Shown: in pieces, positions 1 to 15,029 of the stretch
How the letters are laid out: every line of letters starts with the position of its first letter
Numbering within the stretch: position 1 is the stretch's first letter
From: Candidatus Altiarchaeota archaeon
GTDB taxonomy: Archaea > Altiarchaeota > Altiarchaeia > IMC4 > QMZM01
Direction of reading: 5' to 3'
DNA length: 18,855 bases
NCBI GenBank assembly: GCA_016931955.1
Contig: JAFGDV010000003.1
Location: 1-18,855 of the forward strand
Notes under the pieces: model-generated
Told to the model about the DNA's origin: nothing
Seen by the model: the letters and a program-made list of their open reading frames with translations, nothing else
Database searches by the model: none
Made by a program: the position numbers and the translations under genes

Positions 1-178
1 GCACGTTCATCCATGCTAGTGTGTCTGGTTGGATGTCTACCATGGTTTTCTCCATCACGTTAACCCAGAGTTGTATTGTGTCGCTGGCGTTTATGGTGTC
101 TGCAGAAGCAAGATTGCTGAGGAATAGCATCAGCAGTGATAACAAAAACCAAACCCTTTTATCCTCTATTATCCTCAT
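1..178 (-). CDS. Secreted pilin-like protein, paralog of 592..1533 (5' part only; runs off the window)
   Basis: Not in ORF track. ATG at 178-176 overlaps the TGA of the wHTH gene (ATGA). Hand translation: MRIIEDKRVWFLLSLLMLFLSNLASA/DTINASDTIQLWVNVMEKTMVDIQPDTLAWMNV, i.e. Sec signal peptide ending ASA, then a segment aligning with NDSESATITVNISHNVMVDITPAAFSWGAI of the 313-aa protein (N-x-S...VN...MVDI-x-P...W). Confidence 0.85.
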   Translation of the reverse strand, partial: MRIIEDKRVWFLLSLLMLFLSNLASADTINASDTIQLWVNVMEKTMVDIQPDTLAWMNV

Positions 179-423
179 TTTTTCGTGAATTTATCCAGTG
201 TAAGAGTCTTCGCTGTTAGCTTCCACACGACCTTTTTCTGCCCGATCGGCGACATGATGGTCTGCTCTTCTATCAGTCCAAGGGATTTGAGCTTGTAGCA
301 GTGTATGTTCACAGTTGACCAGGCAAGCTTTGCTTCCTTCGCTATCTTGTATGTTGAGATGGGTTTTCCCCCTTTGCTGAGCAATTCTATGACTAATTCA
401 TCTATCCTGTCTATGTCAGTCAT
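175..423 (-). CDS. Small winged helix-turn-helix DNA-binding protein (ArsR/FaeA-like fold), probable regulator
   Basis: Pattern ISTYKIAKEAKLAWSTVNIHCYKLKSLGLIEE...GQKKVVWKL is a typical wHTH (HTH, LxxxGLI, wing ending in W). Start placed at ATG 423 (82 aa); ORF track extends to ATG 456 but that stretch lies in a long hairpin. Confidence 0.8.
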   Translation of the reverse strand: MTDIDRIDELVIELLSKGGKPISTYKIAKEAKLAWSTVNIHCYKLKSLGLIEEQTIMSPIGQKKVVWKLTAKTLTLDKFTKK

Positions 424-433
424 TTTGAGCGTG

Positions 434-541
434 GGAGGTTGCCGAAACATTATCATTGGAGTTCAAGGAGATTGTGGCTTGGGGGGTGGTTGGTTTTTAG
501 GTAAACTCCATGATGTTGTTTTTTTCCTTCGGCAAACCTCC
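434..541 (-). other. Extended hairpin (~108 nt) between pilin-gene terminator and wHTH gene; candidate structured leader or ncRNA
   Basis: + strand arms GGAGGTTGCCGAA (434-446) / TTCGGCAAACCTCC (528-541), and TGGAGTT (457-463) / AACTCCA (504-510) with further ATCA/TGAT and ACA/TGT pairs; 40-nt loop. Confidence 0.5.
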
Positions 542-548
542 ATTGTGT

Positions 549-582
549 AAAAAAATCTAAAACAGCGGCCTTTTTAGGCCGC
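549..582 (-). terminator. Hairpin + T-tract terminator after the 313-aa gene
   Basis: GCGGCCT-(4 nt)-AGGCCGC (565-582) 10 nt after the stop, followed on the minus strand by TGTTTTAGATTTTTTT. Confidence 0.7.
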
Positions 583-591
583 ATATTCTTT

Positions 592-1533
592 TTATGCTAC
601 ATCGTTTACTATCGCCGTTATCTTTCCGCTAGAGGAACCCTCATATATCCCGTATGGAACGTATGCCTTGATTCCCATGGCGAAGGAGTCTCCTGGAACC
701 AGCGGCGTTCCTTCCACATTGTAGTCGTATGCGTAGTTCACATTAGCGCATAGATGGAATGGTGAGTCTGCGTTCCATCTGGAGAAGAACACCCTCGTAC
801 AAGTGAAATCTACCGCTACGCAGAGCCCATCTAGAGGCCCATCTGTTATGTCTGCATACGCAAAGCTGTAGTCGGGTAAAGCTGTCAAGCCGAATGATTC
901 CACGTCACCTGTCTGGAAATTTGTCGTCCCAGTCTGCGTTTTGGAGTGGGATGTGTTACCTATATATATATTAGTTCCGCCAGTGGTACAATTGGTGTTG
1001 TTGTTGATCATCCAGAAGTATTCGTCACCTGCTTTGTGGAATCTTCCATAGATGTATTTGTTGTCGTTAGGTGGCATGTTTCCGTCAGGGTCCTTTAGAT
1101 AGACCAATTCCGCTGTTGTGTTGTATTCCACCCTGTTTATGAACCAGTAGTCTGTGGCGGATGTGTTCTTTGACAACACGACGAAGTTCCCTGCATCGAT
1201 GGCAGAGGAGTTTCCCGTTCCGAATGGATTGTTTAGCGGATAGGTTGCGTTGAACCATACGTGGGTTATGTTCGCCGACCCGACGTTCTCTATCTGTATC
1301 CCGAAGTATCCAGATGCTTCATGTGTGCTGTTTGCCTCTGTGCCTGGTGCAATCGCACCCCATGAGAAGGCGGCAGGTGTTATGTCAACCATCACGTTGT
1401 GTGATATGTTGACTGTGATGGTTGCGGATTCGCTGTCGTTGTTTGATAGATTTCCACCCAACTGAGCGCTTGCGGCGCCCATGATAATATACAATAAAAG
1501 CAATAATAGTCCGTATTTTACTCTACCTATCAT
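592..1533 (-). CDS. Secreted, heavily N-glycosylated Ig-like protein; putative major pilin/fibre subunit (TasA/ABP-, Csu/SCPU- or WxL-like donor-strand type)
   Basis: Sec signal ending AASA, no TM anchor; N-terminal alternating strand ATITVNI then VDITPAAFSWGAIAPG, IQIENVGSANITHVW; C-terminal LVPGDSFAMGIKAYVPYGIYEGSSSGKITAIV; 12 N-x-S/T sequons, 4 Cys; strong SD GGGTGATG (1537-1544) and own terminator. CDS certain, function inferred. Confidence 0.6.
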   Translation of the reverse strand: MIGRVKYGLLLLLLYIIMGAASAQLGGNLSNNDSESATITVNISHNVMVDITPAAFSWGAIAPGTEANSTHEASGYFGIQIENVGSANITHVWFNATYPLNNPFGTGNSSAIDAGNFVVLSKNTSATDYWFINRVEYNTTAELVYLKDPDGNMPPNDNKYIYGRFHKAGDEYFWMINNNTNCTTGGTNIYIGNTSHSKTQTGTTNFQTGDVESFGLTALPDYSFAYADITDGPLDGLCVAVDFTCTRVFFSRWNADSPFHLCANVNYAYDYNVEGTPLVPGDSFAMGIKAYVPYGIYEGSSSGKITAIVNDVA

Positions 1534-1593
1534 TCACATCACCCATACTAATTCAGCCAATATAGATCCATCTCAATATATTTACTATAATCT

Positions 1594-1664
1594 TATACAA
1601 ACATACTCCTATAAAAACATATCGAGATGTTCTTATATTTTTATATGCTAAAGATATATAAATA
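1594..1664. promoter_or_regulatory. Divergent promoter region with 28-bp imperfect palindrome (candidate operator) and TATA box
   Basis: TATAAAAACATATCGAGATGTTCTTATA (1610-1637, 12 of 14 pairs), extra half-site TATACAAACAT (1594-1604); AAAGA-TATATAAATA (1650-1664) ~31 nt before ATG 1686. Confidence 0.55.
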
Positions 1665-1685
1665 CTTATCGGTTTTTGGTTTAGA

Positions 1686-2822
1686 ATGAAGCCAAAAAAC
1701 ATCATCCACGAGTTGGCGATAATATATCTGCTAATCAATAGCGTCTCCGCCGTCTCGGTAGGAACAGCCCCCGGCGTCTACGACCTGGGGGAGCTGGACG
1801 CCGGGACAAATGTAGCGTTCAGGTTCTATCTGATGACGAACGCACAGAATGATATGTTAGTTACCTTGAGTTACATTCCAGTCCACCAAGACATGTACTA
1901 TCAAGCAGTGACCTCAGGCTACAGGTTCATTCCAAAGGAGGCGTCCCAGGAGGATATCACTTCATGGGTCGAAATACCCCGGAACCCACTCCTGCTGTCG
2001 CCTGAGAGGGTGCAGGTCGTATACCTACAGGGCGGAGGCGTTGTCAGAGCAAACGAAGAAGCGGACATTGTCTTACACATACCAGAAAACGCTGACCCAG
2101 GATACCACGCCGGTTCGATAAGCCTGAGCCCTCAGGTTGCCTCGGGGGGACGCGGCACCGGAGTAATGACCATCGCAGTGACGAGATTTATCTTCGTTTT
2201 CAGGATCGCGGGGGAGGCTAAGAGGGACGGGGAGATAATGACGATACTGGGGGAACGCCTAGAGGAGAAGAAGGCGAAAATAGACGTCTTATTCAAAAAC
2301 ACGGGAACATGCACACTCAGTGCGAGGGTTACTGAACTAAAACTATATGACAAATTCGGGGAACATGTAGCAACCCTGCAGTCAGGTATAAAGATTGTGC
2401 GCCCGGCCATTATAGAATCACTAACTGCTTACTGGCAGGGGGAGGCAGTGAAGCCTGGGACGTACAGGGTAGAAGCGAAGGTAGACTACATAACAGGCTA
2501 CAAGACCGCAGAGGCTACAGTGGAGATACCTACGACAATAAAGGTAAAGCCGAAGAAGCCGACGATTCCTCTACCCGAGGTCTCGGTTTGCGGCTACCTG
2601 CCATACCTGCTTATGGTGCTCATAATAGCGGCATTACTCATCTACTGGCTTGACTGGCGGCGAAAGGAAACGGCCTTGTTGATAATTGCCGCCTTATTCC
2701 TTATAGCGATAGCTTTCTATGTTCTCACCTGTGTGATATCCCTATCCTTAGGTTTTTCATGGCTTGACATACTCTTGGTAATTATAATAATCGCGCTAAT
2801 AATCTACTGGAGGTTGTCCTAG
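1686..2822 (+). CDS. Membrane-anchored two-Ig-domain protein resembling WxL-interacting protein (DUF916/DUF3324) / pilus chaperone (EcpB/PapD-like)
   Basis: Signal peptide (VSA); domain 1 ...ITSWVEI...VLHIPENADPGYHAGSISL...FIFVFRIAG; domain 2 VLFKNTGT...LYDKFGEHV...VRP...LTAYW...PGTYRVEAKVDY; Pro/Lys linker; three C-terminal TM helices. Motif order matches what I recall of DUF916-DUF3324 proteins. Confidence 0.6.
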   Translation: MKPKNIIHELAIIYLLINSVSAVSVGTAPGVYDLGELDAGTNVAFRFYLMTNAQNDMLVTLSYIPVHQDMYYQAVTSGYRFIPKEASQEDITSWVEIPRNPLLLSPERVQVVYLQGGGVVRANEEADIVLHIPENADPGYHAGSISLSPQVASGGRGTGVMTIAVTRFIFVFRIAGEAKRDGEIMTILGERLEEKKAKIDVLFKNTGTCTLSARVTELKLYDKFGEHVATLQSGIKIVRPAIIESLTAYWQGEAVKPGTYRVEAKVDYITGYKTAEATVEIPTTIKVKPKKPTIPLPEVSVCGYLPYLLMVLIIAALLIYWLDWRRKETALLIIAALFLIAIAFYVLTCVISLSLGFSWLDILLVIIIIALIIYWRLS

Positions 2823-2823
2823 A

Positions 2824-3390
2824 ATGGAAAAGAAGATTATAGTGGTTGCAGGTATTCTTTCTTTTATCTTTCTGGCTATGGTTGGTTTTATGGGTTTCTT
2901 GATAACAGACAACACACCGACGGGTTTCATGCTATCAGGAAAGACAGCAGAACCCGAAGAATATGTTCAGAGGATCACGAGAGAGGGTGATGAGAGCCTT
3001 TTCTTCGATAAGATAATCGATAGAATCCCTGCCAGGGTTAGTGTAGTGCATCCCAGGACTGAGAATAATACAATAAAGGTGGGGGTTTCAGCAGACACTA
3101 ACGAGCTGAATTTCGGCGTAGTTATACAGAACATGTCTGTGAGAAAGTTCCTGAATATAGCCAGCGATGATGCTTCAACGGTTAAGATATGTATTGTCTC
3201 ATATGGCAACATAAGTTCGTTCATAAGAGCGGAGCAAGTCGATTTTATCATGGAAAAAGGCGATTCAACGGAGGTCATGCTTGAATTTAACGGGGATCTT
3301 GTTGGAAATTACACCGGCGAGGTGGATGTGGTAACAAAGAAACCAAAATATGGTTTCCTTGAGTCATTGTTACCGTTCGTTGCATGTTAG
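2824..3390 (+). CDS. N-terminally anchored single Ig-like domain protein, hypothetical
   Basis: N-terminal TM followed by PTGF; domain VGVSADTNELNFGVV...RKFLNI...GNYTGEVDVV; 1 nt after previous stop. Confidence 0.75.
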   Translation: MEKKIIVVAGILSFIFLAMVGFMGFLITDNTPTGFMLSGKTAEPEEYVQRITREGDESLFFDKIIDRIPARVSVVHPRTENNTIKVGVSADTNELNFGVVIQNMSVRKFLNIASDDASTVKICIVSYGNISSFIRAEQVDFIMEKGDSTEVMLEFNGDLVGNYTGEVDVVTKKPKYGFLESLLPFVAC

Positions 3391-3396
3391 TAGAAA

Positions 3397-4230
3397 ATGA
3401 ATAAACGGATTATAGCAGTCGCTTTTTTGTTACTTGTGCCGTCAGCTGTTGCGATAATAGAAGTCCAGGTTTATGTATCGGGTCTTATAGACGGCAGAAT
3501 TCCCCACTCAGAAATCCCAGAAGTTGTGAACGACACACCGCAAAGCTTTCTTGTTGTTTGGGAGAATACCGGTTCAGTGGGCTGCGGTTTTAGATTGAGG
3601 GCTGACATCTACGAGGTCTTGAATGACACAAGAAGGCAGGTCTATACTTCATGGGGTGAGGAAAAGCCTATAGAACCTGGGGGTACAGGCAATCTTGCAG
3701 CATACTGGTATCCTGGCAGGTCAGGAAATTTTACTGTGAGAACGTTCCTGTACTTCTGCAATTCCATAAAGGATGGTCCGGCTGCGAATTTTTCTGTATA
3801 TAGGTCCAATAGGACCGGGTCGAGGATCCCGGCAGAGATAACAACAGAAGCAACTGAGGACTATGTGGAATTCAGGTTTGATCCGAAGGAGGACATCAAC
3901 TCCATTCTAATAGTGCCGAGGGACTACCCGACAGGCTGGGTCTTCGAGTCGAAGAGTTTAGAGAGTATCAAGAAGGGCGAGGAGAACACTGTGAGGTTGG
4001 GATATGAGGCGAGCATATGGAAGGAGAGGAACATCACATTTGACATAGTATCCGCCGATGGTAGATTCTATCAATCGAGCAAGGTTTCGTTGATGAAGAA
4101 GGAAGAGTTCCCGATTTATCAGGCAATCATTATGTTTTTAGTCATAGTAATCTTAATACTCTCTGTACAGCTTCTAAGATACAGAAGAGAGGGTTGCAAG
4201 GGAGATGAAAAAGGAATTCCAGAAAAATAA
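3397..4230 (+). CDS. Secreted/C-terminally anchored two-Ig-domain protein, related to domain 2 of 1686..2822
   Basis: Signal peptide (SAVA), WENTGSVGC...IEPGGTGNLAAYW...GNFTV, YPTGWVF second domain, C-terminal TM plus basic tail. Confidence 0.75.
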   Translation: MNKRIIAVAFLLLVPSAVAIIEVQVYVSGLIDGRIPHSEIPEVVNDTPQSFLVVWENTGSVGCGFRLRADIYEVLNDTRRQVYTSWGEEKPIEPGGTGNLAAYWYPGRSGNFTVRTFLYFCNSIKDGPAANFSVYRSNRTGSRIPAEITTEATEDYVEFRFDPKEDINSILIVPRDYPTGWVFESKSLESIKKGEENTVRLGYEASIWKERNITFDIVSADGRFYQSSKVSLMKKEEFPIYQAIIMFLVIVILILSVQLLRYRREGCKGDEKGIPEK

Positions 4231-5077
4231 GTCGGCGGAAGATCCCACCAAGGCCGTGGCCAGGGAGGTTCTCCGCAGTCCTCATATGAAGGAATTTCCC
4301 CATACCCCGCCTGTGAAGCATTTCAATAGACCCCTGCCTATGGAGGAGGTTCCACAAGACAGGGTGCCTACGGGAATCCCAGGGCTTGATGAGCTCCTAA
4401 GGGGTGGTTTTCCCAAGAAATCCGCCATCCTAGTTACAGGGATACCGGGCTGCGCTAAGACCACTTTTGCTTTGCAGTATATCCTAAATGGTGCAGTAAA
4501 GTACGGCGATCGTGGGGTCTTTATTACGGTGGAGCAGGATGTTGAGCAGCTTCACCGCCAGTTTCAGACATTTGGTTACGACATAATGAAGCTTCAGAGG
4601 GAGGGGAAGCTGGCGGTCTTCTGTCTGGAGGTAAAGCCAGAGTTCGGCGAGGACTTCATGATGAAGATAACCTCCAAGGAATTCAGGGATGCAATTAGTG
4701 AATTCGGGGCAAATCGGCTGGCAATTGATCCACTGAATCTTGTTTTGCAGTTCAGTGCGGATTACGGCGGAGAACGTAGGGGCATACAGCGGTTGATCTC
4801 AACCTATAAGAAACTGGGTTGTACGACTATTTTCACGCATGAGAGGGCGGTGGGGGGGCCGGATCCCATATTCGGTGTACAGGACTTTATCGTTGATGGG
4901 ATAATATATCTGCAGCTTGTGAAGATCCGGGGCGCCATAGGTGAGAGGGAGACCCTTTTTGAGAGAAGGCTTAGCATACTAAAGATGCGTGAGACAGATC
5001 ACGGTCAGGGGATGTACCGCTTTGAGATTGAGAAGGATGGGATCCACCTATATCATGGAGTCTTTCTCAGGACGTAA
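4205..5077 (+). CDS. Single-domain KaiC-like (RAD55/ArlH-related) RecA-superfamily ATPase
   Basis: RVPTGIPGLDELLRGGFP, Walker A GIPGCAKTT, Walker B RLAIDPL, DFIVDGIIYL, arginine finger ILKMRET; Pro-rich N-terminal extension; overlaps previous gene by 26 nt. Confidence 0.9.
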   Translation: MKKEFQKNKSAEDPTKAVAREVLRSPHMKEFPHTPPVKHFNRPLPMEEVPQDRVPTGIPGLDELLRGGFPKKSAILVTGIPGCAKTTFALQYILNGAVKYGDRGVFITVEQDVEQLHRQFQTFGYDIMKLQREGKLAVFCLEVKPEFGEDFMMKITSKEFRDAISEFGANRLAIDPLNLVLQFSADYGGERRGIQRLISTYKKLGCTTIFTHERAVGGPDPIFGVQDFIVDGIIYLQLVKIRGAIGERETLFERRLSILKMRETDHGQGMYRFEIEKDGIHLYHGVFLRT

Positions 5078-5096
5078 AGGCCCTGCATGGTTTTAG

Positions 5097-5130
5097 TATA
5101 AAAACACGCAAATATATTAATATATAAATA
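5097..5130 (+). promoter_or_regulatory. Internal TATA promoter upstream of minD
   Basis: AT-rich 72-nt gap; ATATATAAATA (5120-5130) identical to 1654-1664, 29 nt before ATG 5150; TATAAAAACA at 5097-5106. Confidence 0.5.
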
Positions 5131-5149
5131 TAATATTATACTATTGACC

Positions 5150-5896
5150 ATGTCAATAATAGGTGTGGTTTCTGGCAAGGGAGGGGTTGGTAAAACAACA
5201 TTTTCAATAAACTTGGCTGCGGCGCTGAAGGAATTCGGGCAAGAAAGCGTCATAGTCGACGTAGACCTGAACAACCCCAACATAGCCCTCCATCTTGGGA
5301 TACCAAACATGCACTTAACCCTGCAGGAGGTCCTCTCAGAGGAGGTGAAAGTCCATCATAGTATATTCCACCACCCCGTCGGCTTGAAGGTTATTCCCTC
5401 CTCGCTTTCTATGTCGAATGCCACCGCTGATCTATCCAATCTGAGAAAATATCTCACGCAGTTGGAGGGGATAGTGATCCTTGATTCCCCTCCAGGCTTG
5501 AACGAGAACGTTATCTCTGTTTTGGACGCATCAGATTCAGTCATAGTCGTAACCAACCCTGAGATATCTGCTGTCACCGATGCCTTGAAGGTAATCAAGC
5601 TTGCTAAGGATCTGAGGAAAGACAACATAGGCGTTGTCATAAACAGGGTCAGAAATGATGTCTATGAGTTAAACTCCGATGAAATAGAGCTAATGTGTGA
5701 AACACCCATAGTAAGCAGGATATCAGAGGACTCGAACATAAGGAAGGCATCATTCGAGAACGTTCCCGTTGTTCTAAGAAACCCTTATTCGCTGTCTACG
5801 GTGGATTTCATGTATCTTGCGGCCAGACTGCTCAGGAAGGAGTATGAGCCCCCCAACTTTTTAGCCCTGCGGAGGCTCCTAAGCTTCAGAGGTTAA
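5150..5896 (+). CDS. minD: Archaeal MinD/ParA-family ATPase
   Basis: Deviant Walker A SGKGGVGKTT, DVDLNNPNI, LDSPPG, VVTNPEISAVTDA, GVVINRV; C-terminal amphipathic FLALRRLLSF (membrane-targeting-like). ATG 5150 preferred over TTG 5144. Confidence 0.88.
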   Translation: MSIIGVVSGKGGVGKTTFSINLAAALKEFGQESVIVDVDLNNPNIALHLGIPNMHLTLQEVLSEEVKVHHSIFHHPVGLKVIPSSLSMSNATADLSNLRKYLTQLEGIVILDSPPGLNENVISVLDASDSVIVVTNPEISAVTDALKVIKLAKDLRKDNIGVVINRVRNDVYELNSDEIELMCETPIVSRISEDSNIRKASFENVPVVLRNPYSLSTVDFMYLAARLLRKEYEPPNFLALRRLLSFRG

Positions 5897-5901
5897 ATAT
5901 A

Positions 5902-8382
5902 ATGAAATGCAAGAGATCAACCTCAAATTTTTTTTTAGTCCTAGCCTTGCTCTCCCTGATTGGCAACGCATCTTCTCAGACACTTGAGGTAACTGATGTA
6001 AACGTCAATCCCTCCGTTGTCTGGCTGAATGAAAATCCCAGAATTACCGTTTCAGCGAAGTGTAGATACAACAACTCAGTGATACAGGCAGACGATGCTC
6101 TCGTTGAAATCAAATCCCCCGCTGGTTTGACGACGACAGAAAACCTCGCCTACTCCGGTGGGACATACTCTAACGCATTCTTGTTATATGGCTTCTCTGA
6201 GATAGGCACATACACAGCTTCTGTGACCTGTGATTACAACAGTTTAACTGACACAAAGAAAAAGACCTTCACAGTGCGTGAAATGGAGTTGTCCATAATC
6301 AAGGAGGGGAGTGAGATAAAAGCCTATATGGGGGAGGTTATTGAGGTCAGGATAGATTTCAGGGTGGATGGAAAGCAGGTCTCGCTGGCGAGGGATGACT
6401 ACAAGATAGTCGTCGGCGATGTTGAGGCTGAGCCGATATCTGTCATCGGGACAACAGGCTATCAGACGATAAGCGTAGACCTATGCCCCGAAGACGACAT
6501 AGAGGATTGCATGGATGATCTACCAGAGGGCCTGTATGACCTGGAGATTACAGCATACTATTCAACTGGCCAGAGCGTGGCAGATAAGGTGAAAAATTAC
6601 GTCCGCGTGAAGCCCCCAATAAAACTAGATTTCTCAAAGGTGAGGGTTGAGTGCGTTGTCGGACAACTCTGTAGTCCCTCAATAACCTTCGGCGTAACCA
6701 TGACGTCGGGTGACGTGTCAGAACTCTCGGAGGATGACGTATCCGTGAGGATTTTAGGCAACAGGGTCTTCGAAAGCGTTTACGTGGAGGACCTTCAATG
6801 TGATAAGCAAGCTGGTTCATGCACTGTGAAATTGAACATACCCTCAAACCTGCAGCCAGGATCATATGACTTGTTCTTGTCCGTGGAGAAAAAATTCGGC
6901 GACAACTCCTATACGATTGAGGAACCCATCGATTTGAAGGTCGTTCTACAGTTTTCTGGTTATATGAAGGATGCTGCAGGTGAGGTAGTAAGCTCAGTAA
7001 TAACGCTGACTAATTCAGGTACTGGACAGGTGGTCTCAGGGAGCACTGATTACTCTGGCAGATACTCCCTTGACGTGCTCCCAGGGGTGTATGTGATGGA
7101 GGCTAGATTCGGTGGCGCAATTATCAGATTCAATAACGTCTCTTTTTCAAGTGATGACTTCCTCCTTGGGATTTCAGGAAACCTCCTAAGGTATGATGAG
7201 GGGCATCTGCATTCTGGAAGCCCCTCGGGTGTTAGGATCGTGAAGGTCTTAGCAGTCGAGCTAGCATTACCTTTTTACTCAGCATGGTTCTTTGTTCCAT
7301 ACAATAGTGCCCTCGTTAGTGGGGATGAAAACAACTTGAGGGTGTATAAGTGCGCTAACTGGAACTTTGAGAAGGGTTTCTGCAACGGAGAATGGAAGCA
7401 GATAGCGGCGGAAGTTCATCCTATACGTAATGCCGTGGAGTTCTACGCGGATTCAACATCGGCCTTCATAGTGGGAGAGCAGAGGGCACTGTATCTGCAA
7501 AGCATCGAATTGCAAACTCAGAGGGTCTTCATAGGGGAGAATATAGTAGTTGATGGGAAGGTCTGGGATAGCGATGGTAATCCTGTCGAGGGAGCCCAGA
7601 TAAGGCTTTCGTTCCCAGAATTTGGCATCACTTCATCGGCAACATCAACTACGGGAGGGTTCTTCAGGGCGACCATAACAGCCCCTTACACTAGCGGCTA
7701 TCCTTCCCTATTGATAGAGGCCTCGAAGGAAACATATATATCTTCTAACGTGACAACGACCGTTGGCGTGGATATGAAAAAAGAGGTCAGTGTGTTTGGT
7801 GTCCCCGAGAGTGTTGAGATAAAGCTTGGTGAGCCGAAGAGCCTGAGATTCAAGATCTTCAATTCGGGTCAAATCAATCTGACGGATACGATACTCCTCC
7901 GCGTGAATGGGATACCCCAGGGGTGGTATAGGCTTTCAGACGTCAAGATTGATTCCCTTGAAGTAAGCGAGCAGAAGGAGATTGAAATGACGATGGAAGT
8001 AACACCAGAGTTGTGTGGTGCTGACTGCGGTCAATTCTATCTGACAAAGATTGAGGCCACCTCGGAGGAAGTAAGCGATGTTGCGAGTTTTACATTGGTA
8101 ATAGCTTCATCGAAAAATCAGACCACTTCAGCACCTGATAAGGATTCTGGTGGGCTTATAAAGCTGCCTGACATAACTGGTTTCAGTATTTCTGTGCCGA
8201 AGTTATCGAACTCTTATCTTCCATTGAGCTTTATAGTGATCCTCCTTATTCTTATCGTAAACAAGAAGAAGTCTTTCGATATCCAGCTAAGGAAAAGAAG
8301 GCCTGGGAGGAAGGAGAAGGGCGCACCGAAGCTCAGGGATTCTGTCATGGCGTCGCTGAATAAGATCAAGAAGCAGATATAA
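5902..8382 (+). CDS. Large multi-Ig cell-surface protein, C-terminal TM (paralog A)
   Basis: Signal peptide; repeated beta-sandwich motifs (GTYT, PEGLYDL, PGSYDL); carboxypeptidase-regulatory-like domains (GYMKDAAG...TDYSGRYSLDVLPGVY; GKVWDSDGNPVEGAQI); PGF-pre-PGF-like segment (ENNLRVYKC...WKQI...SAFIVG); NEW3-like domain (FNSGQINL...GIPQGW); ITGF-linker-TM-NKKK. Confidence 0.8.
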   Translation: MKCKRSTSNFFLVLALLSLIGNASSQTLEVTDVNVNPSVVWLNENPRITVSAKCRYNNSVIQADDALVEIKSPAGLTTTENLAYSGGTYSNAFLLYGFSEIGTYTASVTCDYNSLTDTKKKTFTVREMELSIIKEGSEIKAYMGEVIEVRIDFRVDGKQVSLARDDYKIVVGDVEAEPISVIGTTGYQTISVDLCPEDDIEDCMDDLPEGLYDLEITAYYSTGQSVADKVKNYVRVKPPIKLDFSKVRVECVVGQLCSPSITFGVTMTSGDVSELSEDDVSVRILGNRVFESVYVEDLQCDKQAGSCTVKLNIPSNLQPGSYDLFLSVEKKFGDNSYTIEEPIDLKVVLQFSGYMKDAAGEVVSSVITLTNSGTGQVVSGSTDYSGRYSLDVLPGVYVMEARFGGAIIRFNNVSFSSDDFLLGISGNLLRYDEGHLHSGSPSGVRIVKVLAVELALPFYSAWFFVPYNSALVSGDENNLRVYKCANWNFEKGFCNGEWKQIAAEVHPIRNAVEFYADSTSAFIVGEQRALYLQSIELQTQRVFIGENIVVDGKVWDSDGNPVEGAQIRLSFPEFGITSSATSTTGGFFRATITAPYTSGYPSLLIEASKETYISSNVTTTVGVDMKKEVSVFGVPESVEIKLGEPKSLRFKIFNSGQINLTDTILLRVNGIPQGWYRLSDVKIDSLEVSEQKEIEMTMEVTPELCGADCGQFYLTKIEATSEEVSDVASFTLVIASSKNQTTSAPDKDSGGLIKLPDITGFSISVPKLSNSYLPLSFIVILLILIVNKKKSFDIQLRKRRPGRKEKGAPKLRDSVMASLNKIKKQI

Positions 8383-8409
8383 TCTTTCACTTGCATAACT
8401 TAAGAGAGA

Positions 8410-10878
8410 ATGGAAATCTGGAAGATTTGGGGGTGGATTTTTCCATGCCTTATGCTCTATCTACTCTGTGGTATTGCGTCAGCCCAGAGTCTGGCTGTCA
8501 CGGATCTAACTGTGACGCCTTCAGAGATATGGTTGAACAGGAATCCTAATATGATAACGATCTCTGCTAAATGTGAGTTCGGCAGTTTTATTGCAAATGA
8601 TGCGGACATGTGGGCTGAAATATCCTTCCCTGGTGGGGGTGGGATGTCTACGGTGCCCCTGATTACTGGGATTTATGAATACCAGCTTTATTCCTCATTC
8701 CCTAACACAGGCACCTACACTGTGAGAGTGAATTGTGGATACAATGGTCATAGTGCGTCTGCCTATCGTTCGTTTACCGCTCATAGATTGGATCTATCGA
8801 TGGACTATAACAAGGAGATAGACACCTATCTTGGGGACGATCTTATGCTGAATGTCAAGTTCATGGCCGACGGCAGCCTTATGACCCCCAAGAAGGACAC
8901 CTTCATGATCTATCTGGGCGTCGATGATAGGTGGGAGCGCTTGGAGCAGACAGAAGACCCTATGCTGAGCGGCGGCTACCAGCAGGTGAGGGTTAAAATA
9001 CCGCTGTATTCTGACAGGGTAGGTAAGGGCTTATATGATCTGAGGGTTGAAGCCAGGTACTCAGATGATGAGCGTTTAACGTTAGCTAAGAGAAAGTTTA
9101 TCTGGGTTAATGACCCTATCCAGGTCTATATGAAGGATAGCGAAATCTTTCATGTACGCGGTTCTTCGAACAGCGTTAACCTGTCTGCTAAGGTAGTTTT
9201 TAAGGCAGGGGACCTCTGGGACATCGGGGCGGAAAATTCTGAGATAGTGATCTTTGATGAAGACACATCAAGGAATGTTCTGGTGAAGAGCATATACTGC
9301 AACAGGGTGACGGAGGAGTGTGTTTTCTCATTTGATGTGCCCTCTCTTGCTCCTGGTTCATACAACCTAGCACTGACGTTGGCCTATCCCAGCCTCACAA
9401 ACTACAGGTACAAATCCACCGCATCCATACCGATGAAGGAGGCATTAGAACTTTCCGGAGAGATAAAAGACGCCAAGAAAAATGTTATAGTCACTACGAT
9501 AGTTGTTGAGAGCATCGACCGAGGAGAGATAGAGGAAGTGAAAACGTCGTCTAATGGCAGTTACTCGATAAACCTGCTTCCAGGCAATTACAATTTCATA
9601 TTCAGGTTTTCTGGTGGGGTGACCATAAAGGTGTCAAACGTCTCCGTCTCTAACCTCGACTTGATCTCCCTTCCAGGGAATCTACTGAGGTATGATCAAG
9701 GGCACATGGAATCCGATGTACCTGATGGTATCAAGATGCTGAGGATAGTGGTCTTAGAGTTGGTGTTCCCTTTCACGGATATATGGGTATACGTGCCATA
9801 CGATAGCTCTAAGATAGCTGGAGATGAGAAAAAACTTAAAGTGTACACGTGTGATAGGTGGAATTTTGAACGCAGCCTGTGCACTGGCACCTGGGTTGAG
9901 GTGGAGAACACCTTGATATACACGATAAAGGACGCCATCGAATTTAACACAACCTACTATGGTGCTTTTCTCCTGGGGGAAAGCGATCGGCTGAGTTTCT
10001 CGCAATTCAAGGTACTTGATGATGAAGTATACATGGCCGAGTCGGTGATTGTGGAAGGTACTGTGGTGAACAGTAAGGGGGAGCCCGTCCAAGGTGCCAC
10101 GATCAACGCATCCTTTCTCGGTTATGGGGAATATTTCACAACGAAAACCAGCAGTGATGGTGAATTCAGGGTAAGTGCGGGTGCTCCGCATTTTGAGGGT
10201 GATGTTGAGCTTCTGTTGAAAGCTGGGAAGGATCTCTTCATCGGCGCGAACAAAACCCATATAATCAGCGTGGGCAGAAAGAAGGACATCAGCATATTAC
10301 AGGTTCCAGACATAGTAGACATATCCCTTGATGAAGTCACCGACTTAGAGTTCAGCCTCTTCAATTCAGGTCAGATAGATCTTGACGACACAATCTACCT
10401 CCACATAGTCGGCATATCATCTGAGTGGTATGAGTTGCTGCCTAATTACGTTGATGGTTTGAATGTGAACGAGGAAAAGCCCTTCATCCTGAGAATCAAG
10501 CTGACCTCTGAGTTATGCGGTGGAAAATGCAATAAGTTCTATCTGGTGAATCTTGAGGCAAAGTCGAGCGATATAAGCGAAGTAGCAAGCTTCACCATCA
10601 AGGTGCCAGACATTCCCGTCAATGAGACAGAGTACTATGAAGAAGGAGAGAAAGAGGAAACCTCCAAGGGGGTTGGTATCACTGGTTTTACCATATCCCT
10701 GCCCTCAATATCAAGCCCCTACATATTCTTGACAATAATCGTCGTTCTGTTGTTACTTATAGTCAACAAGAAGAAGACGGGGAAACTGCATAAGTCATTC
10801 GGCAAACACGGCAAAAAAGGGCATGCGTTAAGGAGCTCTATAATGTCTTCATTCCATAGGATAAGAAAAGAGACCTAA
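8410..10878 (+). CDS. Large multi-Ig cell-surface protein, C-terminal TM (paralog B)
   Basis: Colinear with 5902..8382 over full length (GNLLRYDQGH vs GNLLRYDEGH, WNFE, FNSGQIDL, ELCGGKCNKFYL vs ELCGADCGQFYL, ITGF, LIVNKKK). Confidence 0.8.
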   Translation: MEIWKIWGWIFPCLMLYLLCGIASAQSLAVTDLTVTPSEIWLNRNPNMITISAKCEFGSFIANDADMWAEISFPGGGGMSTVPLITGIYEYQLYSSFPNTGTYTVRVNCGYNGHSASAYRSFTAHRLDLSMDYNKEIDTYLGDDLMLNVKFMADGSLMTPKKDTFMIYLGVDDRWERLEQTEDPMLSGGYQQVRVKIPLYSDRVGKGLYDLRVEARYSDDERLTLAKRKFIWVNDPIQVYMKDSEIFHVRGSSNSVNLSAKVVFKAGDLWDIGAENSEIVIFDEDTSRNVLVKSIYCNRVTEECVFSFDVPSLAPGSYNLALTLAYPSLTNYRYKSTASIPMKEALELSGEIKDAKKNVIVTTIVVESIDRGEIEEVKTSSNGSYSINLLPGNYNFIFRFSGGVTIKVSNVSVSNLDLISLPGNLLRYDQGHMESDVPDGIKMLRIVVLELVFPFTDIWVYVPYDSSKIAGDEKKLKVYTCDRWNFERSLCTGTWVEVENTLIYTIKDAIEFNTTYYGAFLLGESDRLSFSQFKVLDDEVYMAESVIVEGTVVNSKGEPVQGATINASFLGYGEYFTTKTSSDGEFRVSAGAPHFEGDVELLLKAGKDLFIGANKTHIISVGRKKDISILQVPDIVDISLDEVTDLEFSLFNSGQIDLDDTIYLHIVGISSEWYELLPNYVDGLNVNEEKPFILRIKLTSELCGGKCNKFYLVNLEAKSSDISEVASFTIKVPDIPVNETEYYEEGEKEETSKGVGITGFTISLPSISSPYIFLTIIVVLLLLIVNKKKTGKLHKSFGKHGKKGHALRSSIMSSFHRIRKET

Positions 10879-11843
10879 CCAAATAATGAAGCGAGCCCGG
10901 AGGCGGCATCTTCCTCAGAACTCTTCTCCTCCTTCTCTGTCTTTTTTTCCTTCTCTTCTTTGGTTTTCTCCTCAGCCTGAGAGGATGATGCGGCAGCCTT
11001 AAGATCCTCTCCTACAGCATCAGGGACCTTGGATGCTAGAGACAGCATATCACCGTATGCTTTCGACAGCAAAAGCTTTATTGTTTCTTTGTTGAATATC
11101 TCAGCATTAACCGCCAGATTGAGAGCTTTCCTGGAGGCGTCTATGAGAAGATAGCCGATTGTTTCTTGGTTGTATACCCCTAAATTAAGTGCAAGATTCA
11201 GTGCGTTGACATAAGCAGTCTGTAAATCCGTCATCACCTGTTTTTCGTCTATTGCTAGAACATCCGGTGTATAGATCAGTCCGTCCTCGTACGCGGCGTT
11301 CAGTTTTAGGCCGATCTCCATGGGCTCGATACCCAGTCGTGTGAGAATCATAGCGAGTTCGGGTGATATCCTCTCACCCTCCTTAACGACCAATGAATCC
11401 TCTGTTATGGAGATCTTGCCCGCCTTTATCTGAGCCTTAATGCCGGCTTTCTGGATGTCTCCGATGATTGGTCCGGCAGGGAGTGATGTCTCACCGGCAG
11501 GCACAACAATATCCTTCGGTGCTTTGTTCCCACCTTTTGCAGGCGAGGATATCCTATTTTCTTTCAGGATTTTGTTTAATTTGAATGGGTCGAGATCCGT
11601 CAGAACCAGACCTATGGATCCCCTGATGTGAGAATCAAGGCCCTTGATTTCAGCGTTCTCAAAGGACCTCTTTATGAGGTTGATTCGGCTCACCCTAACC
11701 TCTGCTTTCCCTGCCAGTTTTTTCCTCATCAGTTGGAACTGCCTTGATGGGATTCCGTTGATGTCAACTAAACCCACAACCTTTGAGTTGCTTATCCTCT
11801 TTGTTAACTTTTCTATTTCCTTTAGTTTCCACGCGGCTACCAT
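10875..11843 (-). CDS. rplP0: 50S ribosomal protein uL10 (archaeal P0)
   Basis: N-term VAAWKLKEIEKL, GIPSRQFQLMRKKL, APKDIVVPAGET, acidic hinge and C-terminal EEDAASGLASLFG. Confidence 0.97.
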   Translation of the reverse strand: MVAAWKLKEIEKLTKRISNSKVVGLVDINGIPSRQFQLMRKKLAGKAEVRVSRINLIKRSFENAEIKGLDSHIRGSIGLVLTDLDPFKLNKILKENRISSPAKGGNKAPKDIVVPAGETSLPAGPIIGDIQKAGIKAQIKAGKISITEDSLVVKEGERISPELAMILTRLGIEPMEIGLKLNAAYEDGLIYTPDVLAIDEKQVMTDLQTAYVNALNLALNLGVYNQETIGYLLIDASRKALNLAVNAEIFNKETIKLLLSKAYGDMLSLASKVPDAVGEDLKAAASSSQAEEKTKEEKEKKTEKEEKSSEEDAASGLASLFG

Positions 11844-11845
11844 TT

Positions 11846-12484
11846 TTAAGCATCAAGTCTGATCGGAGCACCCATCGTTGTCTTGAAGTAGATGGATTTG
11901 ATTCTATCCTCAGGTATCTGTTTCTCGATACCAGATACCACTGCGATAACGTTCTCTGCCAGATCCGCCGGGCTCATGTCTTCAGTTCCCACCGGCACGT
12001 TCACCGTAGGATTCTTTTTAGATCTGATTTTGATAGTATCCCTCAGCTTCTTGGTTATGGCTTCCAAGTCAGCGTTTGGGGGAACCGGTTGAGGCATCTT
12101 TCCTTTCGGGCCTAACACGATGCCCCAGCTTTTTCCGATGACTGGCATAAGGTCGGGTTGGGCGATGAATGAATAACAGTTATCTGCGAATTTCCTCATC
12201 TTCCTCCTGTTTTTGGAATAATCTTCCAGTTCCTCTCTGCTTAGAACATACTTGGAGACCTTTTTCGCTCGGAGGTTCATGTCGCCGTCAGCGAATACTC
12301 CTATGTTCACCTCCTTGTTCCTGCCCTTAGGCAAAAGCACTGATAGATTAAGTTTGTTTTCAGGGTTCTCCATGTTTATTTCTTTGAAGTTGACGCTGAT
12401 CTCTGCAGATTGCTTGAATTTTCTCTCCGTTATCTGCTTGATCGCTTCCTGAATACGCTTTTCAGTCTCTTTTTTATCCATCAT
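11846..12484 (-). CDS. rpl1: 50S ribosomal protein uL1
   Basis: RKFKQSAE, LPKGR, LGPKGKMP, VGTEDM, KTTMG; SD GGAGG before start; position between rpl11 and P0. Confidence 0.97.
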   Translation of the reverse strand: MMDKKETEKRIQEAIKQITERKFKQSAEISVNFKEINMENPENKLNLSVLLPKGRNKEVNIGVFADGDMNLRAKKVSKYVLSREELEDYSKNRRKMRKFADNCYSFIAQPDLMPVIGKSWGIVLGPKGKMPQPVPPNADLEAITKKLRDTIKIRSKKNPTVNVPVGTEDMSPADLAENVIAVVSGIEKQIPEDRIKSIYFKTTMGAPIRLDA

Positions 12485-12485
12485 G

Positions 12486-12561
12486 TTCCTCCTACCTTAC
12501 CTAGATTAGGGGTAGTATACAGAAGCGGAATATTCTATCTATTTGGAATTAATACTTAAAA
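12486..12561 (-). promoter_or_regulatory. rpl11-rpl1 spacer: TATA-like box and SD-adjacent hairpin (candidate leader)
   Basis: Minus strand TTTTAAGTA (12561-12553); stem CTACC-CCTA-ATC-TAGG-TAA-GGTAG (12515-12492) running into GGAGG SD; TTCC (12530-12527) can pair with GGAA (12489-12486). Confidence 0.35.
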
Positions 12562-12562
12562 G

Positions 12563-13036
12563 TCAGGTCAACCGTTCCTCATAGGCTCCATTATTTATCT
12601 CCTTAGTCATCTCTTTCGCGCTTTTACCTTCTATTGTCACACCTAGGGTCTTGCAGGTTCCTATGACCTCTTTCACAGCCCCCTTGAGGTCGTTGGCTAT
12701 AAGTGAGGGTTTCTTCATATTTGCGATCTTCAGTAGTTGGTCAAAGCTAAGGTTTCCAACAATAGAGCCATCCTTTGTACCTGTATCTAAGCCGATCTCT
12801 TTTTTGATTAGTGCGGATGTTGGAGGTGTTCCAACCTGTATCTCATACTTCTTCGTTTCAGGGTCGACGACTACTTTGACAGGAATCTTCATCCCAGCAA
12901 AACCGGAGGTTTTCTCATTTATTGCTGCTACAACTTCGTTTATGTTTAACCCTAGTGGGCCTATCTTTGGACCCAACGGCGGGCCACCGGTAGCCTTCCC
13001 GCCTTCCACTAGAATCTCTATAGTCTCCTTTTTCAT
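12563..13036 (-). CDS. rpl11: 50S ribosomal protein uL11
   Basis: VEGGKATGGPPLGP, INEKT, GTPPTSALIKKE, EVIGTCKTLGVTIEG. Confidence 0.98.
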   Translation of the reverse strand: MKKETIEILVEGGKATGGPPLGPKIGPLGLNINEVVAAINEKTSGFAGMKIPVKVVVDPETKKYEIQVGTPPTSALIKKEIGLDTGTKDGSIVGNLSFDQLLKIANMKKPSLIANDLKGAVKEVIGTCKTLGVTIEGKSAKEMTKEINNGAYEERLT

Positions 13037-13533
13037 TCTTCAGTTTCTCCCTCTTTTTTAAGGATCTTGATGTCGTCTCCCTTCACAACCACTGGAATGG
13101 GTACTGCAGCCTCTATCAGCTCCACAGTGATCTCATCTTTGTCTTTATCGACCCTCGCAACCCTTGCTTTTTCTTTCTTGAAGGGCCCGGCTATTAATTC
13201 TACAAGATCGCCCTTATTTACTTCTTGCACTACAGGTGTTGGCATAAGGGTTTTTTCGAGTTCCTCAATCGATATCGTCCCAGGGACGTCTTTTTTCTGC
13301 AGCAAACCGCGCGTCTTCGGTGTTTCCCTGGCGATGTCCTCAACCGTTCCAGGGTTGTCGGCTTCCACTAGAACGTAGCCCTTTAAACCGGTCGTATAGA
13401 GTACTGAATAGATTTTTTCTCCCTCCTCCACTTTGCCCTTTTTCTTCCGACTGGCTACTTCTTGGTATATGAGCCTTGCAACTACGTTTTCCTGTCCTGC
13501 GGTTGCCCTTACGGCGTAGATTCTTGGATCCAT
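13033..13533 (-). CDS. spt5: Transcription elongation factor Spt5 (NusG)
   Basis: IYAVRATAGQE, LKGYVLVEA (NGN domain); GDLVELIAGPFKKEKARV...ITVELIEAAVPIPV (KOW). Confidence 0.97.
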   Translation of the reverse strand: MDPRIYAVRATAGQENVVARLIYQEVASRKKKGKVEEGEKIYSVLYTTGLKGYVLVEADNPGTVEDIARETPKTRGLLQKKDVPGTISIEELEKTLMPTPVVQEVNKGDLVELIAGPFKKEKARVARVDKDKDEITVELIEAAVPIPVVVKGDDIKILKKEGETEE

Positions 13534-13563
13534 TATAACCTGAAATGAATAAGTGTTGGCAGT

Positions 13564-13746
13564 CTATGCCCCCTGGAATACCTCAGAAATGAGAAGAATG
13601 ATGAAACCAAGCAAACCAATTGCCAGCATCCCTAAACCCGTTATCTTCATGGTTTCGTTGAATTCCGCTTTCTTCGGTTTCCTGCTTAGTCTCAGAATCC
13701 TCCTAGTCTCACTGTAGGCTTTAACGATTTTTCCCTCTAAGCCCAT
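13564..13746 (-). CDS. secE: Protein translocase subunit SecE (Sec61 gamma)
   Basis: RILRLSRKPKKAEF...ITGLGMLAIGLLGFII; between ftsZ and spt5. ATG 13746 (GTG 13752 alternative). Confidence 0.95.
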   Translation of the reverse strand: MGLEGKIVKAYSETRRILRLSRKPKKAEFNETMKITGLGMLAIGLLGFIILLISEVFQGA

Positions 13747-13759
13747 TTTCACTTAACCA

Positions 13760-14914
13760 CTAAATCTCCCTTAAGCCGATATCCATCCGCTCCTCTCTTC
13801 TGCCTGCTTCAACCCTCTCCTCTAGCTCCTCCTCAAAGGCGGGTGTCTTCACCCCGGAGAGGATGAGTAATGTCTTAATAACATTCCTGTCGAGGGTTTC
13901 ATCTATCTGCGCACCCCAGATAATCTGTGCCTCTGGGTCTATGCTCTCTGAGACAATCCTTACAATCTCTTCCGCCTCTTTTAGTGTCATGTCCCTGCTT
14001 CCTATGATGTTTATAAGTGCCCCAGTAGCACTGCTCACATCGGTGTCTAGTAGAGGTGAACTTAGGGCTTTTTCGACGGATTCCTGGGCTCGTTCGTCCA
14101 TGCTAGTATCCCTCGTAGATGATCCGAGGCCTATCATGGCAGTGCCGCCTTCCTTCATTATGGCTCTTACGTCAGCAAAGTCTAGGTTGACAAGACCAGG
14201 CTTCGTGACCAGCTCCGTTATACCCTTCACTGCGTTCGACAATAGCTCATCAGCCACCTTAAACGCATCATTTAATGGCAGATTCGGCGCAACGTCCAGT
14301 AACCTGTCGTTTGGTATCACTATGACGGTGTCGGCGAACTTCCTGAGCTTCTTTAGACCGGTGAGGGCATTTTTTGCCCTCAACCTACCCTCCATCTTAA
14401 AGGGGAGTGTTACTATGCCCAGTGTTAAAGCATTTATGTCTTTCGCAACTTCTGCTATAACTGGAGCTGAACCAGTCCCGGTTCCTCCACCCAGACCGCA
14501 TGTTATGAAGACCATGTCTGCGTCAGTCAAGACTTCCGCGAGCTTTTTTATGTCGGCGTCTGCACACTGTTCCCCTATTTCGGGATCGTTCCCTGCGCCG
14601 ATTCCCCCCGTTATAGCAGCTCCTATCAGCACCTTCGTCATGGCTTTCGTGTATAACAGGTCGAGGGCGTCAGTATTTACTGCTATGACGTCGCCGCCTT
14701 CGATGCCCATATCTACCAGCCTGTTGATCGTGTTCCCACCTGCGCCGCCTGCTCCAACAATCTTTATCGAGGTCTTTATCTCATCTACAATACGCCTTAA
14801 TTCTTCGTCAGTGTCGGTACCTAAAGAGACTTTTATCTCAGTTGGCCTCTTTTCTATTTTAATCTTCTCCCTTATTTTTGCTTGTGTGATTGCGTCTTGA
14901 ACAATAGCCTCCAT
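13760..14914 (-). CDS. ftsZ: Cell division protein FtsZ (FtsZ1-type context)
   Basis: GAGGAGGN, AVNTD, tubulin signature GLGGGTGTG, T7 loop NLDFADV, IIWGA; ATG 14914 preceded by GGTGG SD; ftsZ-secE-spt5 synteny. Confidence 0.98.
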   Translation of the reverse strand: MEAIVQDAITQAKIREKIKIEKRPTEIKVSLGTDTDEELRRIVDEIKTSIKIVGAGGAGGNTINRLVDMGIEGGDVIAVNTDALDLLYTKAMTKVLIGAAITGGIGAGNDPEIGEQCADADIKKLAEVLTDADMVFITCGLGGGTGTGSAPVIAEVAKDINALTLGIVTLPFKMEGRLRAKNALTGLKKLRKFADTVIVIPNDRLLDVAPNLPLNDAFKVADELLSNAVKGITELVTKPGLVNLDFADVRAIMKEGGTAMIGLGSSTRDTSMDERAQESVEKALSSPLLDTDVSSATGALINIIGSRDMTLKEAEEIVRIVSESIDPEAQIIWGAQIDETLDRNVIKTLLILSGVKTPAFEEELEERVEAGRREERMDIGLREI

Positions 14915-15029
14915 CCAAACCACCTTTTATGCGATGCTACTCCATCAGATATAAATAAATAATAAATTATATTGGAAGTCATACTATAAAAAGACAGTAA
15001 GGTAAATGAAATCTATAATAAAACCCGAC

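Follow-up and report, generated by a model that had tools for sequence, protein, structure and literature searches.

A conserved archaeal gene cluster with a remote DUF916/DUF3324 homologue: a candidate system for chaperone-assisted assembly of a surface fibre

The DNA analysed here, called the window throughout, is the entire 18,855-base contig C30 of a 1.55-Mb archaeal metagenome-assembled genome (Candidatus Altiarchaeota; 92% complete, 0.4% contamination), whose proteins have relatives in Altiarchaeales or Altiarchaeota records. Positions 1-10878 hold a divergent, closely packed cluster with two arms (Table 1). The left arm encodes secreted proteins of the P313 family and a small winged-helix-like protein (wHTH); the right arm encodes three membrane-anchored proteins (P378, P188 and P277), a KaiC-like ATPase, a MinD and two anchored proteins of about 820 aa (P826 and P822, together P82x). 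The gene layout is conserved, its genes co-occur across genomes of two phyla, and P378 is a remote homologue of the DUF916/DUF3324 proteins. The most likely reading, held at about even confidence, is that the cluster encodes an archaeal surface fibre that uses no type IV pilus machinery and is assembled by a membrane-anchored chaperone. A preliminary description, made from the bare sequence, had proposed such a fibre, built from donor-strand subunits and controlled by MinD and KaiC-like ATPases. Its interpretation is supported in part, by the chaperone homology and the co-occurrence, while the donor-strand status of P313 and the control by MinD and KaiC are conjectural.

The chaperone homologue, the candidate subunit and the anchored proteins

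P378 has hydrophobic segments at residues 6-28 and 296-378 according to hydropathy, and its C-terminal transmembrane (TM) region is conserved in 15 of 15 aligned homologues, as either one or three helices. Searches against Pfam and NCBIfam returned nothing for P378, the 15 family members show no consistent Pfam family, and a profile search of the PDB gave only weak, scattered matches. A profile of the 15 members was then compared with 5.8 billion proteins; outside its own family, the single match was P0270 (E 1.6e-5), a protein that carries DUF916 (PF06030) with 34.3 bits against a cut-off of 27.3. Profile alignment with hhalign gave P378 a probability of 97.9% with P0270 and of 86% with a plasmid-encoded Paenibacillus protein annotated as DUF916. 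With alignment A6, which combines P0270, 17 relatives and the Paenibacillus protein, the probability was 98.7% (E 1.7e-16), and the 239 aligned columns span the two domains in their order. The Paenibacillus protein also has a weak DUF3324 match, and a WxL gene follows it. Moreover, the P378 hidden Markov model (HMM) directly matches DUF916 proteins in 80 metagenome loci (L071-L150; E 3e-15 to 1e-10), and the stretch in which P378 is most conserved (residues ~149-176) corresponds in the alignment to the end of the DUF916 domain. A language-model lead points the same way: the named Atlas cluster closest to a P378 homologue (score 0.90) is a Bacillota family in which 98% of the members carry DUF916 and DUF3324. 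Together, the sequence comparisons indicate that P378 shares ancestry, domain order and membrane topology with the WxL-interacting proteins, and that it has diverged too far for the Pfam models.

The preliminary description had called one of the right-arm proteins a membrane chaperone and had drawn an analogy to WxL/DUF916 clusters. Both ideas held, and the family has since been shown to act as a donor-strand chaperone. In particular, an October 2026 preprint by Sleutel et al. (10.64898/2026.10.17.759780) and its authors' screening identify DUF916/DUF3324 proteins as the membrane-anchored donor-strand chaperone of the E. faecalis Elr/WxL pilus, report a C-terminal TM on 96.7% of the chaperone family, and find the DUF916 chaperone pathway in Bacillota only, by Pfam gathering thresholds on RefSeq reference proteomes. 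In Hassan et al. 2023, DUF916, DUF3324 and the TM are defined as one unit that binds WxL proteins.

The relatives of P0270 form a large group. A search yielded 754 hits, and those with names belong to bacteria of the Candidate Phyla Radiation (CPR), Kaiserbacteria and Nomurabacteria. The abundance of these relatives implies that the family is not confined to Bacillota. Beside the CPR DUF916 genes are genes for a conserved membrane protein of 138 aa and for secreted proteins (~370 and ~633 aa), one of them with Big and dockerin domains. There may be a relationship between these loci and the Pam pili of CPR bacteria.

P313 has one hydrophobic segment only, at the N terminus, together with 12 N-x-S/T sequons and an isoelectric point of 4.5, as read from hydropathy and a sequon count. 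Its family comprises 329 representative clusters, 191 of them at E<=1e-30, and each locus carries one to four copies as tandem paralogues. Across 291 aligned members, the signal peptide ends in a conserved Ala, followed by a polar acidic stretch and then by a strand at residues 37-43 whose successive positions are hydrophobic in 77, 6, 99, 9, 100, 5 and 100% of the sequences; a C-terminal strand (residues 305-309) is also conserved, with the protein ending a few residues later. Coevolution analysis (effective depth 220) supports two disulfides. Further, in one relative, P0152 (672 aa), the P313 module is preceded by a ConA-like lectin domain (E 7e-31), as is the case in FimH and in the large WxL tip adhesins. 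In its general features, P313 would fit a pilin: it is secreted, unanchored, acidic and sequon-rich, occurs as tandem paralogues, and begins with an alternating strand. No relationship was detected between P313 and P378, P188, P277, P82x, the families c10, c14 and c15 or the CPR neighbour families, and HMM searches did not find the P313 module inside the giant proteins of the loci. The sequon count also differs between the two central proteins, with none in the 378 residues of P378 against the 12 in the 313 residues of P313, a contrast that would suit a transient assembly factor and a permanently exposed fibre subunit, respectively.

Among the other anchored proteins, P188 is the sole cluster member with a match to ASH/PapD-like domains, its profile reaching HYDIN ASH-domain chains (9ijj, E 7e-7; 2ys4, E 0.02); none of the nine cluster proteins matches the PapD_N or PapD_C families (PapD, PF00345) or an usher. 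P277 has a signal peptide and a TM at residues 235-264. Its first mature strand has an invariant V25 within a conserved alternating pattern (alignment A3), and domain one of P277 shows homology to domain two of P378 (93%, E 3e-7); a profile search of the PDB returned nothing. By analogy with ElrB and PamR, P277 is a candidate membrane anchor or terminator of the fibre. P826 and P822 are 35% identical, each with a C-terminal TM and CarboxypepD_reg domains (E 1.2e-9 and 1.9e-16, respectively), and their profiles gave weak, scattered PDB matches only. A hamus or S-layer identity for these two proteins was rejected, as neither matches S_layer_N (PF05123) or any S-layer family. Their tails (window 8230-8382 and 10720-10878) are basic and cytoplasmic, and end in a short motif conserved from Altiarchaeota to DPANN (alignment A5); the motif is a candidate docking site for the neighbouring MinD.

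Conservation of the locus and its ATPases

A scan of one genome per species found 53 loci encoding P313 relatives, some from Altiarchaeota and others from records with the names Aenigmat-, Nanohal-, Woese- and Micrarchaeota. Together with the window and contig C34 of the same genome, they form 55 sources, which were compared using tblastn with the window proteins and all-against-all clustering of open reading frames (ORFs). The recurrent order has P82x, MinD, an optional KaiC, P277, P188 and P378 on one side, one to four P313 genes with the wHTH gene diverging from them, and then a MoxR arm with one or two MoxR genes, DUF58, vWA, two smaller proteins and large to giant secreted proteins. The cluster recurs with unchanged gene order in 19 of the 55 sources, so the arrangement is not due to chance. 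Among the 19 sources with P378, P188 is present in 19, P277 in 18, MinD in 14 and P82x in 13. A full P313 ORF lies 14-1375 bases from P378 in 17 of these loci; in the other two, the P313 ORFs are contig-end fragments.

The same association is observed across whole genomes. Among 61 Altiarchaeota genomes, P313 and full-length P378 are each found in 15; 13 genomes have both, two have only the one, two have only the other, and 44 have neither, with all four single-gene genomes being 73-83% complete. Among 121 sampled genomes from the phylum of locus L022 (an Aenigmatarchaeota record), 39 have both, 3 and 4 have one alone, and 75 have neither. The pair is therefore present in about a quarter of the Altiarchaeota genomes and about a third of the sampled Aenigmatarchaeota genomes. 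These genomes are related and not independent, so Fisher values calculated from the counts overstate the association; the pattern is plain despite their kinship. Five DPANN genomes have a P313 locus without a nearby P378, and four of the five carry P378 on another contig. Full-length P82x is found in 14 of the 61 Altiarchaeota genomes, all of them among the 15 that are P378-positive. The preliminary description had named the co-occurrence of left- and right-arm genes as the comparison by which it could be refuted; they do co-occur, both within loci and between genomes.

The cluster was described as lying within positions 1-10878, and its genes are indeed there, but the system continues beyond the window. 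The first genes on contig C34 are those of a complete P313 paralogue (331 aa, 54% identity) and of another wHTH protein; next come two MoxR genes, DUF58, a vWA/BatA-like protein and secreted proteins that range from large to giant. In locus L011, the order of the window and of C34 is found on a single contig, as one locus of ~35 kb. C34 is thus very probably the continuation of C30 beyond its left end, possibly with a further P313 gene in between. Downstream of the MoxR, DUF58 and vWA genes, C34 (L057, positions 7361-15855) encodes two secreted proteins, of 1078 aa and more than 1450 aa, that flank a third one of 286 aa. This smallest protein aligns weakly with P378 in the same order (60%), and may be a second, diverged P378-like chaperone whose clients would be the giant proteins.

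Some DPANN homologues contain in-frame stops: six in the P378 of L030 (7508-8647), and one each in the P277 of L013 (2829-3530) and the P188 of L044 (4683-5171). Further frames with in-frame stops are L055:8243-9748, L051:6692-7441 and L050:1594-2694. These may be pseudogenes, assembly errors or frames that were extended through a real stop.

Both cytoplasmic ATPases of the right arm belong to defined families. The KaiC-like ATPase matches PF06745 (E 9.8e-59, 199 bits); its start is probably at 4340 (M46) and not at 4205, because homologues are 243-245 aa long. An identity as ArlH was rejected, with 36.3 bits against a cut-off of 215 (NF052589). In the in-cluster KaiC-like genes, Ala replaces the Gly before Lys in the Walker A motif in six of six cases (the window, L011, L014, L017, L023 and L055). 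For KaiC-like genes located between MoxR genes, the Walker A motif is canonical in L018, in L019 and in one of the two copies in L037; the other L037 copy has Ala. The deviant motif may mark a regulatory, weakly hydrolysing KaiC-like paralogue. MinD scores 215.3 bits against TIGR01969 (minD_arch; cut-off 201.75) and has a deviant Walker A and a conserved C-terminal amphipathic tail. The genome has one other close MinD-like gene, of which this MinD is a paralogue with 31% identity.

Proposed assembly, comparable systems and rival explanations

The proposed model has P313 subunits exchanging strands under the guidance of P378, with P277 and P82x as anchors and with MinD, KaiC and MoxR as regulators. 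P313 and its paralogues would be exported by Sec, cleaved after an A-x-A site and N-glycosylated, as read from the sequence. P378, the chaperone homologue, would bind newly exported P313 and hold it by strand complementation, after which P313 could polymerise head to tail by donating the conserved alternating strand behind its signal peptide. P277, and perhaps P188, would tether or terminate the fibre at the membrane, and the two P82x proteins would act as base or adhesin partners; both roles are suggested by architecture and strict co-occurrence. More speculatively, MinD, the KaiC-like ATPase and the MoxR, DUF58 and vWA proteins of the adjoining contig might position or regulate the apparatus, possibly through the cytoplasmic tails of P82x. 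The adjacent wHTH protein would control the P313 genes. The fibre would likely be used for attachment to surfaces, partner cells or a biofilm matrix.

The cluster is probably an archaeal variant of chaperone-guided, usher-less pilus assembly, with a new subunit family and cytoplasmic ATPases. A more specific version is held somewhat more tentatively, and at a little less than even confidence: an usher-less archaeal pilus whose chaperone shares ancestry with the WxL-pilus and CPR DUF916 proteins, whose pilins form a new family, and whose assembly is placed or gated by coupled MinD, KaiC-like and MoxR ATPases.

The cluster fits the logic of the WxL and Pam systems in that a single anchored chaperone homologue is accompanied by several paralogous secreted subunits and by anchored beta-proteins. 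In the Elr/WxL pilus (ElrE chaperone, ElrC and ElrD WxL pilins), the chaperone is homologous to P378 over both domains and shares its signal peptide, two Ig-like domains and C-terminal TM. Its gene is similarly located beside genes for small secreted subunit paralogues, larger lectin-bearing relatives exist, and there is no usher. However, the archaeal subunits are not WxL proteins, and the Pfam models do not reach P378; no WxL-domain pilin gene was found within 10 kb of P378, where the secreted P313 family fills that place. The archaeal cluster also lacks an LPxTG protein, a sortase and peptidoglycan, and anchoring would be by TM proteins. Finally, the locus adds MinD, KaiC-like and MoxR/DUF58/vWA genes, and its host is an archaeon as opposed to a member of the Bacillota.

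The Pam pili of CPR bacteria use TM-anchored chaperones, several pilin paralogues and a TM-anchored terminator (PMC13278184). They resemble the proposed fibre in their ultrasmall hosts without an outer membrane, in the C-terminal TM of their chaperones, in the number of pilin paralogues, in the anchored terminator and in having no transenvelope machine; many DUF916 relatives of P378 are also found in CPR bacteria. In contrast, no sequence link was found between P313 and the secreted neighbours of CPR DUF916 genes, and the Pam preprint does not use the DUF916 name for PamC or PamD (PMC13278184).

Several archaeal appendages were also compared. Threads (Saci_0406), bundling pili (AbpA) and cannulae similarly have Sec-exported, glycosylated, beta-rich subunits and no type IV machinery; unlike the present cluster, no chaperone is known for any of them, their gene clusters differ, and P313 has no PDB sequence match. 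According to Sleutel et al., neither a chaperone nor an usher takes part in the assembly of archaeal strand-donation pili (10.64898/2026.10.17.759780). The hami of Ca. Altiarchaeum hamiconexum are surface appendages from the same phylum, with a large beta-rich subunit and a Sec signal; the hamus subunit differs in having an S_layer_N region and no reported C-terminal anchor, and the gene context of the hamus contig is different. P313 has no sequence similarity to WxL, TasA/AbpA, thread, cannulae or chaperone-usher pilins. A literature search, in a limited collection without supplements, found no earlier description of this archaeal locus.

A number of observations weigh against a chaperone-assembled fibre. 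First, the homology of P378 does not prove that it has the same activity as the chaperone family. P378 is also out of reach of the Pfam models for DUF916 and DUF3324: PF06030 has no match in it at E<=0.1, and the models have none in the genome even at E<=10. Second, P313 is not recognisable as a pilin by similarity. Its profile has zero matches among PDB chains at E<=10, it has no match in Pfam or NCBIfam (no Pfam family occurs in more than 2 of 42 family members, and none significantly), and its profile comparisons yield 1.4% for a WxL protein and less than 3% for the secreted neighbours of CPR DUF916 genes; the WxL domain (PF13731) has no match in the genome even at E<=10. Third, the coevolution signal of P313 leaves room for another arrangement. 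Coevolution pairs its C-terminal strand with strand 87-95 and packs it on strand 47-51, which implies that the first beta-domain is closed by a C-terminal hairpin and that residues ~140-275 are an inserted subdomain. For the N-terminal strand, the couplings are weak and mixed and in part involve the C-terminal hairpin, and the next strand starts three residues after it, in a hairpin-like manner; these couplings would fit a self-contained fold as well as a donor strand. Fourth, KaiC is found in just 8 (ORF clustering) or 9 (tblastn) of the 19 P378 loci, and no counterparts of MinD, KaiC or MoxR were seen in the available parts of the Elr and Pam preprints; the Pam text has zero occurrences of 'MinD', and KaiC and MoxR were not searched for in it (PMC13278184). 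Lastly, two membranes are reported for the best-studied Altiarchaeum, and no usher-like protein was found. The earlier concept of DUF916/DUF3324 proteins was also one of binding and stabilising WxL proteins at the surface.

This last concept leads to the strongest rival, a static cell-surface complex or coat, which is regarded as rather unlikely. P378 would then stay bound to P313 at the membrane and display it, either in a glycoprotein layer with P277, P188 and the ~820-aa proteins or in a glycan-binding, cellulosome-like complex. Such a role would agree with the lectin domain on one P313 relative and with the lactobacilli Csc clusters, which were first proposed as surface complexes for carbohydrate utilisation; moreover, the coevolution data do not demand an open groove in P313. 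Against it, the bacterial DUF916 family is now shown to build a polymer, and the presence of several tandem P313 paralogues for each single chaperone gene is more in keeping with a polymer of major and minor subunits than with a 1:1 complex. A patchy presence, in 15 of the 61 genomes of the phylum, also argues against an essential envelope layer.

The MoxR arm raises a second and clearly less probable alternative, in which the cluster is part of an archaeal secretion or membrane-remodelling complex and P313 is its exported cargo or an accessory. MoxR (23 of 55 sources), DUF58 (21), vWA (23) and large secreted proteins follow the P313 genes. Makarova, Galperin and Koonin (2015) list MoxR, vWA and Ig-like 'S-layer' membrane proteins as components of such a complex, and in it MoxR, vWA and DUF58 similarly adjoin secreted and membrane-anchored Ig-like proteins. 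A 2019 paper lists a DPANN-specific secreted family (cls.004306) adjoining such components, with which P313 may be identical. However, the signature DUF4350 (arCOG01314) is absent among the nine C34 proteins scanned, the rest of the genome not having been searched for it. Further, the 2015 complex names no chaperone, pilin or MinD, and the prediction specifies no mechanism and is compatible with a role in fibre assembly.

A chance juxtaposition, in which P313 and P378 form a small pair and have no relation to the MinD, KaiC and large surface proteins beside them, is very improbable and already largely refuted by the conservation data: most DPANN loci lack KaiC, the genome holds 12 KaiC-like genes including the cluster copy, and MinD is a common housekeeping family, but the order is kept across Altiarchaeota and several DPANN phyla, full-length P82x occurs solely alongside P378, the adjacent family-labelled gene is MinD or another P82x for 15 of 16 P82x genes, and three loci without KaiC at the first position have it between their MoxR genes.

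If the chaperone-assembled fibre is real, this route of assembly extends to Archaea, where donor-strand filaments (threads, bundling pili) are reported, in the papers reviewed, without an identified chaperone. The fibre would be a candidate attachment organelle for episymbiotic DPANN cells, and many archaeal 'dark matter' genes would be given a function. It would also raise the question of how MinD-, KaiC- and MoxR-type ATPases on the inside communicate with a fibre that is assembled outside, a coupling not seen in any donor-strand pilus covered by the literature reviewed. The frequency of DUF916 relatives in CPR bacteria hints at a toolkit shared among ultrasmall symbionts.

Gene layout of the window

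ORF lists place every gene of the preliminary description where it had been reported (Table 1). The right arm is confirmed as three membrane-anchored proteins, a KaiC-like ATPase, a MinD and two anchored ~820-aa paralogues by PF06745, TIGR01969 and hydropathy. For the left arm, the two secreted paralogues are present, one of them cut off by the contig end, and the wHTH assignment is a weak match. In particular, the truncated P313 paralogue has its ATG at 178-176, overlapping the wHTH stop codon, and profile A1 matches it at C30:2-148 (E 1.7e-6). The wHTH protein scores 17 bits against HTH_24 (E 0.0046; cut-off 21.9) and matches Lrs14 at E 9e-4, also under the cut-off; its homologues adjoin P313 genes in 33 of the 55 sources. 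The absence of type IV pilus ATPase, platform protein, SipW and sortase families was borne out among the 19 window proteins scanned. Signal peptides were read as Sec/SPase I type, with no dedicated class III signal peptide tool applied.

Table 1. Features of the two-arm cluster in the window.
Feature	Position	Strand	Basis or remark
Second P313-family paralogue, first 59 residues	1-178	minus	Signal peptide, then alternating beta-strand; cut by contig end
Small winged-helix-like DNA-binding protein, 93 aa (wHTH)	175-456	minus	Weak family matches
P313, secreted unanchored acidic beta-protein, 313 aa	592-1533	minus	Candidate fibre subunit
AT-rich divergent intergenic region, 152 bases, with TATA-like stretches	1534-1685		Sequence read directly
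P378: signal peptide, two beta-sandwich domains, C-terminal TM helices	1686-2822	plus	Remote homologue of DUF916/DUF3324 (WxLIP)
P188: N-terminal membrane anchor and one ASH/PapD-like Ig domain	2824-3390	plus	Profile against HYDIN chains
P277: signal peptide, alternating N-terminal strand, two beta-domains, C-terminal TM	3397-4230	plus	Hydropathy, alignment A3
KaiC/RecA-type ATPase, single domain	4340-5077 (open frame from 4205)	plus	PF06745
Archaeal MinD paralogue, conserved C-terminal amphipathic tail	5144-5896	plus	TIGR01969
P826: large multi-domain surface protein, C-terminal TM, basic cytoplasmic tail	5902-8382	plus	CarboxypepD_reg
P822: P826 paralogue of like architecture	8410-10878	plus	CarboxypepD_reg

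The divergent intergenic region probably holds two divergent promoters. Gaps between the right-arm genes are 1-66 bases, with 109 bases upstream of the KaiC-like gene if it starts at 4340. No RNA data set is listed as containing window positions 150-5900, and the sequence of this region is almost absent from the two metatranscriptome runs that belong to the same study. Positions 350-362 in the body of the wHTH gene and 1568-1580 in the divergent intergenic region form a 13-nt inverted repeat (92% complementary), which is probably due to chance.

The remaining genes of the window are housekeeping genes, encoding L10, L1, L11, Spt5, FtsZ, pyruvate:ferredoxin oxidoreductase and L35Ae. The ribosomal L10/L1/L11 operon (10875-13533) abuts the cluster, and the L1 and L10 ORF families recur in three related loci, including L011 (1145-2819), indicating that the chromosomal position of the cluster is conserved within that group.

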